Position numbers and translations under genes: made by a program | In this document: positions 18,295 through 19,911 of the stretch, piece by piece | Layout: every line of letters begins with the position of its first letter | Position numbering within the stretch: position 1 is the first letter of the stretch | The notes under the pieces: model-generated | What the model was told of the DNA's origin: nothing | The model's database searches: none | What the model saw: only the letters and a program-made list of their open reading frames with translations | Source of the DNA: a virus | Taxonomy: Duplodnaviria; Heunggongvirae; Uroviricota; Caudoviricetes | IMG/VR virus record: IMGVR_UViG_3300014682_000024 | Span: 1-43,160 of that record | Strand: one strand, 5' to 3' | DNA: 43,160 nt

Positions 18295-19911
18295 TTACGG
18301 CATACTCATCAGCAGGTCTTCCTCCCCGCGCCCGGCAGTTCCGCCACCGGAAACCGCACTGGCAGCATGCTGTGCCATAAAGCGATCAAAAAGTGTTTCC
18401 TGTGACGGTTGCGATGCCGCCGGCGCGGCTGCCAGCAGCGTTTTCGCCTGCGCCACCGTCATTCCCGGTTGTTCTGTCAGTGCCTGTGCAAGTTGCTCGC
18501 GCCCTTTTGCCTCCGGCAGTGCCATAATCTGATCGCCGACACTTGCAGAACCCGCAACCGGTGCCGCCGCCAGTAACGTTTTGGCCTGGTCAACGGTCAT
18601 TCCCGGCTGTTCAGCCAGCGCCTGCGCGAGTTGTTCACGCCCTTTTGCTTCCGGTAACGCCATAATCTGATCGCCTGTGCCTGCAGCACCAGCAGCAGGG
18701 GCTGCCGCCAGAAACGCTTTCGCCTGCTCCACCGTCATCCCCGGCTGACCTGCCAGCATCTGTGCCAGTTGCTCACGCCCCTTTGCTTCCGGCAGCCCCA
18801 TAATCTGATCACCTGTATTTGCTACACTGGCAGCAGGCACAGCAGCCAGGAACGCTTTCGCCTGCTCTACCGTCATTCCAGGCTGACCTGCCAGCATTTG
18901 CGCCAGTTGCTCGCGCCCTTTCGCCTCCTGACAATTCAGGATCCCCATCACGCGCTGATTTTCCTGGGCCACCGCTTCAGCAACGGTGAGATTTTTAACA
19001 GTCATTGCATTCTCCTTCGTAACAGAGTCATTCAGTGCAGAAACCATCACTTCAACGGCATCTGCAGCATTAATCAGTTGATCAGCCAGGCCTGCATCAA
19101 TGCCTGCCTGACCGTCATAAACGGCAGCCTCGGTATTCATCACCGCCTCTGAACTCAGCCCCGTATAAAGCGCCACCTTGTCGACAAACATCCGGCGGGC
19201 CTCATCAATACGGCGCTGAAAATCTGCACGCACACCTGCCGGCAATGCCTGAATACTGTTGCCGTCAACCTTGTGCTGCCCGGAGTAAATCAGCGTGATG
19301 TCCACCCCTTCCTGTGCCAGTTGTTTCTCATAACTGGTGTGCGCCATCATCACGCCAATCGAACCAATTTTTGCCGTCTGCGTGACCAGCCGACGGGTAC
19401 AGGCTGCCGCCAGCAACATGGCGGCTGAACAGGCCATGTCATTACACAGCGCCCACACGGGCTTCTGTTCCCGCAGACGGTAAATCATGTCAGCACAGTC
19501 AAACGCCCCGGCAGCCTGACCGCCCGGGCTGTCGATATCCAGCAAAATGCCGCGCACATCCGGATCATTCACCGCCATCTGAAGACGAGCAGTCAGACCG
19601 TCATAGCCTGTCATGCCGGAGTAAGGCCGCAGGGTACCCAGTTTATGCACCAGCGTGCCGCTCACCGGCAGAATGGCAATGCCATTCTTCACCTGGTAAC
19701 TCTTTGCCGGACGCTGACCGCCCGCCATATAGTCAGTCACCGCCAGTTGCATACCATCAGCATCAAGCTGAACAGCCTGCTGAGGAACGGCAAGGCTGCC
19801 GGCCCCTATCTCTTTACCCAGCGCGCAAAAGAAAACCCGCGCATAGGCGGGTTCCAGTAAAAGCGGCTCATTAAATGCCATGGCGGCAATATGCGATAAA
19901 TTACGACGCAT
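18295..19911 (-). CDS. C: Head maturation protease/scaffold (lambda C plus Nu3-like) carrying four in-frame 46-aa tandem repeats
   Basis: Position between portal and decoration genes; C-terminal scaffold-like region contains the repeated LPEAKGREQLAQ.LA.QPGMTV.QAK unit. Confidence 0.75.
   Translation of the reverse strand: MRRNLSHIAAMAFNEPLLLEPAYARVFFCALGKEIGAGSLAVPQQAVQLDADGMQLAVTDYMAGGQRPAKSYQVKNGIAILPVSGTLVHKLGTLRPYSGMTGYDGLTARLQMAVNDPDVRGILLDIDSPGGQAAGAFDCADMIYRLREQKPVWALCNDMACSAAMLLAAACTRRLVTQTAKIGSIGVMMAHTSYEKQLAQEGVDITLIYSGQHKVDGNSIQALPAGVRADFQRRIDEARRMFVDKVALYTGLSSEAVMNTEAAVYDGQAGIDAGLADQLINAADAVEVMVSALNDSVTKENAMTVKNLTVAEAVAQENQRVMGILNCQEAKGREQLAQMLAGQPGMTVEQAKAFLAAVPAASVANTGDQIMGLPEAKGREQLAQMLAGQPGMTVEQAKAFLAAAPAAGAAGTGDQIMALPEAKGREQLAQALAEQPGMTVDQAKTLLAAAPVAGSASVGDQIMALPEAKGREQLAQALTEQPGMTVAQAKTLLAAAPAASQPSQETLFDRFMAQHAASAVSGGGTAGRGEEDLLMSMP
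18400..18960 (-). repeat. Tandem direct repeat, 138-bp unit, about 4 copies, in frame within the C/Nu3 gene
   Basis: Motif gtcattcc(c)gg recurs at 18459, 18597, 18734 and 18872 (period 138 bp). Confidence 0.8.

Follow-up and report, generated by a model that had tools for sequence, protein, structure and literature searches.

The window (the whole 43,160-nt stretch of viral DNA that was analysed) carries head genes in the order portal gene (19901-21472), C-like gene, D-like decoration gene (17921-18256) and E-like major capsid gene (16824-17852). The C-like gene overlaps the end of the portal gene by 11 nt. The identities of its neighbours are backed by the ORFs, by the PGAP annotation of a 98.6%-identical locus and by tblastn comparisons with lambda and phage 21. 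A prophage adjoining ompW/trpA in E. coli ETEC1732 is collinear with the window; its head module is of the lambda type and its contractile tail of the P2 type. PGAP has named the 98.6%-identical E. coli copy of the C-like gene 'S49 family peptidase'.

The product of the C-like gene shows strong similarity to the family phrog_53 'head maturation protease' (E=3e-217). Both phrog_53 and phrog_8940 ('capsid assembly protein') match the 538-aa protein in 4-5 separate stretches. A sequence search of the PDB with the whole protein identified SppA proteases as its only relatives (3rst and 4kwb, E about 1e-16 for the protease domain); these match the N-terminal part only and leave the repeat described below uncovered. 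Residues Ser162 and Lys214 are aligned to Ser166 and Lys218 of lambda gpC, the former of which is reportedly the catalytic serine. At the nucleotide level, the protease part is about 74% identical to gene 5 of phage 21 and about 70% identical to lambda C. These similarities support the assignment of the gene as a lambda-C-like S49 prohead protease with a Nu3-like C-terminal part.

We analysed the window using Tandem Repeats Finder, which detected a 138-nt period at 18422-18928 (3.7 copies, 79% matches, 0% indels, score 559); a second, overlapping match stretches the array to 18961, and no other strong tandem repeat was found in the 43-kb window. Since 138 nt correspond to 46 codons, the repeat is in frame, and translation of the minus-strand ORF 18295-19911 resolves it into four 46-aa units that together span 18394-18945 (Table 1). 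The units are identical in 26 of their 46 columns, their consensus being QIMALPEAKGREQLAQMLAGQPGMTVEQAKAFLAAAPAAS.., and a hidden Markov model (HMM) of the unit matches the 538-aa protein four times (E 1e-22 to 1e-25). The original prediction had placed a four-fold, in-frame repeat of 46 aa (138 bp) at 18400-18960, in the Nu3-like C-terminal part of a C-like protein. The repeat finder, the translation and the unit HMM all confirm the repeat and its period, the predicted position agrees within a few bases, and the matches to Pfam Peptidase_S49, phrog_53 and phrog_8940 bear out the nature of the host gene; no strand had been given, and the gene lies on the minus strand. Two ORFs of the plus strand (55 and 127 aa) overlap the array.

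Table 1. Features of the C-like gene and its repeat array (nucleotide positions in the window).
Feature	Residues	Position	Strand	Remarks
C-like gene, S49 prohead protease fused to Nu3-like scaffold part		18295..19911	-	538 aa; ORF, Pfam, PHROG
Peptidase_S49 domain core	146-290	19042..19476	-	PF01343, E=1.6e-33
Internal Shine-Dalgarno sequence GAAGGAG		19012..19018	-	6-nt spacer to in-frame ATG
Predicted nested scaffold gene (Nu3/gp6 analogue)		18295..19005	-	236 aa from Met303
N-terminal scaffold helix	303-322	18946..19005	-	AlphaFold: packs as long first helix of unit 1
Unit 1	323-368	18808..18945	-	Orthologous to Tri1 box of phage 21 (core 82% identical in aa)
Unit 2	369-414	18670..18807	-	Extra unit relative to three-unit relatives in alignment
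Unit 3	415-460	18532..18669	-	Translated repeat
Unit 4	461-506	18394..18531	-	Translated repeat
Non-repeated C-terminal tail LFDRFMAQH...EEDLLMSMP		18298..18393	-	Low-confidence/disordered in model

Upstream of unit 1, at a distance of 19 codons, lies an in-frame ATG (Met303, at 19005). Gene 6 of phage 21 (the Nu3 analogue) is annotated as starting, with a ribosome binding site (RBS), at the equivalent position, and the same Met, together with a Shine-Dalgarno-like purine run, is kept in four other alleles with differing surrounding sequences. The predicted 236-aa product of this internal start is similar to phrog_8399 'head scaffolding protein' (E=4e-49) and phrog_8940 (E=7e-59), each of which matches it in 4 stretches; the length of the phrog_8940 profile (201) fits lambda Nu3. 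We infer that a separate scaffold protein is translated from Met303, in a manner comparable to lambda C/Nu3 and phage 21 gp5/gp6. Given this predicted internal start, the array is expected to occur in two proteins: (i) the protease-scaffold fusion and (ii) a free scaffold. Phage 21 has a conserved counterpart of the non-repeated tail that follows the array (..KMLMAMP), and in lambda the resemblance is loose (..DLLNTPV). In the RefSeq copy of the locus in ETEC1732, the equivalent of the predicted nested gene (18295-19005) is uncalled, a point of modest value for annotation.

The structure of the N-terminal helix plus unit 1 was modelled with AlphaFold using an alignment of 44 diverse units (pLDDT 87, rising to about 95 for residues 11-50; pTM 0.70). 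In this model a long helix leads via the conserved EAKGRE turn to a second helix, and the QPGMT loop connects the second helix with the third; the unit is confidently predicted to fold as a compact three-helix bundle. Within each unit these elements correspond to (i) a short helix with the motif IMxL, (ii) the turn EAKGRE, (iii) a helix QLAQxLA, (iv) the loop QPGMT and (v) a helix VEQAKxLLAAAP, after which comes a variable linker of Ala, Gly, Ser and Pro residues. In an AlphaFold model of the whole 236-aa scaffold, the units are helical (pLDDT 70-83), with low confidence in the linkers and over the last 35 residues. The pTM of this model is 0.27, which suggests that the units have no fixed arrangement relative to each other and resemble beads on a string. 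A Foldseek search of the PDB with the whole-scaffold model produced nothing significant (best E = 1), as would be expected of such a model, and a Foldseek search of viral models retrieved other phage S49 proteases only. The coat-binding domain of P22 gp8 was not retrieved, and no solved structure of the module was found in the PDB.

Comparison with well-known phages revealed that the unit HMM finds one match in lambda C (aa 363-406) and three in gp5 of phage 21. The three stretches of phage 21 are labelled 'Tri1 box', 'Tri box' and 'Tri3 box' in GenBank record M81255.1, with the description 'function unknown; putative'. The Tri1 box (M81255 5542-5645) corresponds to aa 23-57 of gp6, CQEAKGREQLATMLAGQQGMSVEQARAILAAAAPQ, which is the core of the unit found in the window. 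The feature table of M81255.1 thus indicates that the repeat as such has been noticed before, and it is the only prior notice that we found; a literature search for repeats in Nu3/gpNu3, for tandem repeats in scaffolds and for the term 'Tri box', which did not extend to the original phage 21 paper, produced no paper discussing the repeat. As judged by these matches, the feature of the window belongs to a known family of repeats, of which the window has four copies, lambda one and phage 21 three. The predicted expansion of the scaffold part therefore holds true with respect to both of these phages.

The distribution of the module was examined more widely with a profile of the four units, which retrieved 393 proteins (E<=1e-3) from 1.84 billion cluster representatives. 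According to an iterated profile, among the best 150 of these 393 proteins, 132 contain one unit, 12 contain two and 4 contain three. In 60 of the 62 S49 proteins of at least 380 aa within the same best 150, a stretch of 35-67 aa separates the end of the last unit from the C-terminus. Some other matches are short proteins that stand alone, as nested or separate scaffolds; among them are two-unit proteins of Bradyrhizobium. The repeat is covered by PHROG families alone: Pfam-A gave only sub-threshold matches at the level of chance in this region (DUF732, Bac_DNA_binding, T2SSK), and NCBIfam nothing relevant.

The four-unit allele is present in 105 of 5,426 complete E. coli genomes, with 85-99% nucleotide sequence identity; 60 of these 105 genomes were listed, and all full-length matches in this list have the same span of 766 nt. 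The four-unit form is thus common in E. coli prophages; in a set of 50,697 phage records, no record had at least 80% of the four-unit scaffold covered. A homologue search with the scaffold alone, in which the 8000 candidates sharing the most words were scored, yielded mostly fragments, and the full-length protein proved the better query. Of the 119 full-length cluster representatives, 74 carry three units (phage 21-, Gifsy- and Salmonella-type proteins), 40 carry four, 3 carry five, and one protein each carries two units and one unit. When the member sequences of the clusters in the close lineage are counted, about 1,560 belong to four-unit clusters, about 200 to three-unit clusters and 2 to five-unit clusters. 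In the databases this protein has many entries marked 'partial', which derive from contigs that end in the gene; the repeat probably adds to such broken contigs and to the number of 'partial' S49 peptidase entries.

Several alleles carry traces of changes in the array. In the five-unit variant GCA_040149825.1, a stretch of 129 bp is duplicated in tandem, and the 99.2% identity of the two copies indicates a recent event. An exact deletion of 138 bp, which has left a hybrid unit, separates a three-unit variant from the L003-type allele. The units of strain A34 are homogenised (78-96% nucleotide identity, 91-96% for units 1-3, with exact runs of up to 61 bp), units 1 and 2 of STEC276 have 69 bp in common, and between-allele dS in the repeat exceeds that in the protease domain by a factor of 2-3. 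Homogenisation and the raised dS of the repeat point to gene conversion. The original prediction that the locus is prone to copy-number variation is thus borne out in part: the wider family shows such changes, with its five-unit duplication and one-unit deletions, and the allele of the window has diverged units and a 766-nt span that is constant in the full-length matches listed. From these comparisons, copy number changes within the family, and the window allele is a stable, diverged four-unit form.

The four units of the window share 62-78% nucleotide sequence identity, with a dS of 0.8-2.5 (NG86) and a core dN of 0.03-0.15. Units 3 and 4 are 95% identical in the aa sequence of their cores and 68% identical in nucleotide sequence over the whole unit. 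The longest exact run common to two units is 17 bp. To be efficient, RecA-dependent recombination in E. coli reportedly needs a segment of at least roughly 23-27 bp, which is longer than this run. Between the window and the L003 allele, the dN/dS of orthologous units is 0.13-0.21, compared with 0.10 for the protease domain, and in an alignment of 33 cluster representatives of the 538-aa form, the unit cores show 1.3-1.55 residues per column versus 1.9-2.3 in the linkers. These substitution patterns show that every unit is under purifying selection, with the caveat that gene conversion between units could mimic part of the conservation of the cores. The combination of diverged units and conserved cores suggests that all four are functional, and shows the duplication in the window allele to be old.

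The function of the array may be considered in the light of other scaffolds. Lambda Nu3 is reported to interact with itself, with C, with the portal protein B and with the capsid protein E (PMC3224144), and the P22 scaffold binds coat protein through a small helical domain at its C-terminus (bioRxiv 10.1101/2022.12.13.520362; PMC12005531). By analogy with the contacts of Nu3 and the coat-binding domain of P22, we take the module to be a Nu3-type interaction element, and the most likely function of the array is that of multivalent scaffold interaction modules. The array would be produced both in the protease-scaffold fusion and in the nested 236-aa scaffold, translated from the Shine-Dalgarno sequence and ATG at 19005. 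Inside the prohead, its bundles may bind the major capsid protein, further molecules of the scaffold, protease or portal, or both. The presence of four bundles per chain would make the scaffold multivalent, and with it the tethered protease; in addition, the module might serve to tether the protease and so carry it into the shell. Once assembly is complete, degradation by the S49 protease would turn the modules into fragments that exit from the shell, as in the case of lambda Nu3. The four-unit state probably arose through old unit duplications and has been kept by purifying selection, with occasional unequal recombination or gene conversion that adds, removes or homogenises units in related alleles. 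Taken as a whole, this proposal of four Nu3-type scaffold modules, acting as multivalent interaction units and originating from old duplications kept by selection, appears to us reasonably probable.

The number of units is a separate question. The capsid protein of the window is 86% identical to that of phage 21 (N-terminal 189 aa) and 57% identical to that of lambda (N-terminal 208 aa), and a dependence of unit number on capsid type was rejected on the grounds of these identities in the N-terminal part. The single unit of lambda, combined with its homologous capsid protein, implies that extra units are unneeded for a lambda-type shell, and the viable-looking three- and five-unit variants suggest that the exact number may be only weakly constrained. 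Such observations are also what would be expected if the extra units were neutral padding, i.e. if a flexible, transient scaffold tolerated duplications and one unit or the C-terminal tail were sufficient: lambda needs one unit only, variants with two, three, four and five units are found among close relatives, and the model of the whole array has no fixed tertiary arrangement. However, the four cores have been conserved as protein although their synonymous sites are saturated (dS and core dN as given above), the dN/dS of orthologous units is near that of the protease domain, the cores are more conserved than the linkers across the 33 alleles, and four units have been kept in alleles that have diverged to 85% nucleotide identity. 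We therefore regard neutral padding as rather unlikely. The units and linkers might instead serve mainly as substrate cassettes of the S49 protease, which would release pieces of about 46 aa that leave the shell, or by which the protease would be buffered or timed. Lambda C has been reported to degrade Nu3 before packaging (PMC3224144), the small-residue (Ala/Gly/Ser) linkers recur at a fixed period, and a Gly-rich motif is common to the portal N-terminus and the scaffold tail (GYSGGGTG, VSGGGTAG). In the portal protein this motif is presumably near the equivalent of the lambda portal processing site, at which 22 aa are removed. It is the structured core that is conserved, however, and the linker less so, and cleavage of this kind is compatible with a role of the units as binding modules; as the main function it is improbable.

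The remaining alternatives concern the origin of the array and the level at which it acts. The abundance of 'partial' database entries, with contigs that end in the gene, and the five-unit variant with its almost identical duplicated unit would be in accordance with a recent, unstable duplication or an assembly artefact, the copy number of which would be meaningless. For the window allele both origins were rejected in view of the divergence of its units, which have no common run longer than 17 bp, and of the four-unit arrangement in 105 complete genomes with its constant span in the full-length matches listed; an origin of this type is highly improbable. A role of the repeat as DNA or RNA rather than through its protein (as binding sites, or via a plus-strand product) might be suggested by the plus-strand ORFs over the array, but it is the amino acids of the minus frame that are conserved, the synonymous positions being saturated, and the module occurs as protein in 393 diverse clusters, so we give it hardly any credence. 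For the window allele, both the artefact or recent duplication and the action at the level of DNA are essentially excluded.

The interpretation of the array as interaction modules may be extended further. The Tri box could be a general capsid-targeting or capsid-protein-binding domain of all S49-type protease/scaffold systems, whose copy number of 1-5 forms a quickly adjustable valency knob. This wider reading, for which we can point to the broad conservation of the module, the purifying selection acting on every copy and the variants in copy number that occur naturally, is unlikely. If it were true, the knob, changed by unequal recombination, could tune the kinetics or fidelity of assembly; alternatively, a conflict with satellites that hijack capsids and imitate scaffolds could be what drives it.

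The four-unit repeat is real and conserved, yet it represents an unremarkable variation on a feature known earlier from phage 21. What the analysis adds is the predicted fold and the family-wide picture of a repeat previously described as 'Tri box, function unknown': the module occurs in hundreds of S49 protease/scaffold clusters, usually as a single copy and at a near-fixed distance from the C-terminus. The main value of the finding lies in the natural series of one, two, three, four and five units on homologous lambda-type capsid proteins, a ready experimental set that could be used to probe the role of scaffold valency in the assembly of a T=7 shell.

Of the known systems, gp5/gp6 of phage 21 (accession nos. 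M81255.1 and OL657228.1) resembles the locus of the window in (i) the order portal, protease/scaffold, decoration and major capsid protein, (ii) an in-frame nested scaffold gene that starts, with an RBS, from the Met equivalent to the predicted internal start of the window and (iii) the repeated module, i.e. the Tri boxes. It differs in having three units instead of four; the units of the window are 61-80% alike in aa sequence over the whole unit, those of phage 21 47-55% over the core. In the window the linkers give a fixed period of 46 aa, and the rest of the prophage carries a P2-type contractile tail. Lambda C/Nu3 consists of an S49 protease and an in-frame nested scaffold with a common C-terminus, as is predicted for the window, and the Ser and Lys residues align. 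In contrast, lambda has one unit, located after a long low-complexity stretch, and the annotated start of Nu3 lies further upstream (201 aa); similarity to the scaffold part of the window is confined to the module and the extreme tail. The best match to the scaffold part among the 50,697 phage records was the Gifsy-1 'prohead protease; lambda gpC homolog' (61% identity), which, like the S49 peptidases of Salmonella prophages, contains three units as opposed to the four of the window. The C-terminal helix-turn-helix of P22 gp8 is comparable only in the presumed way of working, as a small helical coat-binding module at the end of a largely flexible scaffold. Staphylococcal protein A, the GA module and the Ebh/Embp repeats, which are tandem three-helix-bundle binding modules, are also among the closest systems.

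In the protease/scaffold allele of E. coli A34 (nucleotides 1052-2692 of locus L006), repeat units 1-3 share 91-96% nucleotide sequence identity, with exact runs of up to 61 bp. These homogenised units provide evidence of concerted evolution, and the A34 allele should be far more liable to gain or lose units than that of the window. The gene is common to several prophages per genome, being found at a median of 2 places per E. coli genome. A large share of the database entries for the window's protein are described as "S49 family peptidase, partial" and lie on contigs of 0.4-3 kb, which suggests that short-read assemblies frequently break within or near this gene.

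In the database protein P0296 (610 aa, E. coli), the scaffold part is interrupted within unit 3 and fused to the C-terminal part of a baseplate-V-like ORF (its counterpart in the window is located at positions 14131-15048). This fusion implies that a related prophage carries a deletion of approximately 4 kb, with loss of the decoration, capsid and head-completion genes. Two other proteins, P0298 (657 aa) and P0305 (743 aa), one of phage 21 type and one a lambda-type C protein, contain far larger internal duplications that extend into the protease domain and may represent either true rearrangements or assembly errors.

Comparison of nucleotides 1-24118 with the collinear prophage of E. coli ETEC1732 revealed a mosaic element, in which a lambda-type head module is joined to a P2-type contractile tail. 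The ETEC1732 prophage adjoins a truncated ompW gene, near trpA. The two neighbouring phage-borne tRNA genes of the window are also annotated in a related E. coli prophage. These features, together with a short tandem repeat close to the right end, are summarized in the table.

Other features of the window
Feature	Content	Position	Strand
Lambda-type head module	terminase, W, portal, C, D, E, FI, FII-like	within 1-24118	
P2-type contractile tail	sheath, tube, baseplate V/W/J/I, X, D	within 1-24118	
tRNA genes	tRNA-Gly(TCC), tRNA-Thr(TGT)	27955-28108	-
Short tandem repeat	21-bp period, ~4 copies, 71-74% matches, AGAAACGGAACAAAACGACC	42617-42702	

Inspection of gene C of lambda (NC_001416) revealed a second in-frame Met codon at aa 309, preceded by the motif CAGGAGG. 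At this position, gene callers predict proteins of 135-137 aa in lambda-like contigs (P0064, P0067, P0069 and others). Initiation at Met309 would yield a product of 131 aa, compared with 201 aa for the annotated Nu3.

The module is also present in Bradyrhizobium, in stand-alone proteins of approximately 160-200 aa (P0085, P0089, P0090, P0092, P0096 and others), which contain two copies of it, lack the protease domain and have a different C-terminal tail. The multi-unit state has therefore also arisen outside the enterobacterial phages. In phage 21, the GenBank record dating from the 1990s (M81255.1) annotates three repeat regions within gene 6 (nucleotides 771-1165 of locus L010, which derives from this record), named "Tri1 box", "Tri box" and "Tri3 box" and labelled "function unknown; putative"; we found no discussion of them in the open-access literature. 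The Tri boxes of phage 21 are the same module as the repeat unit of the window.
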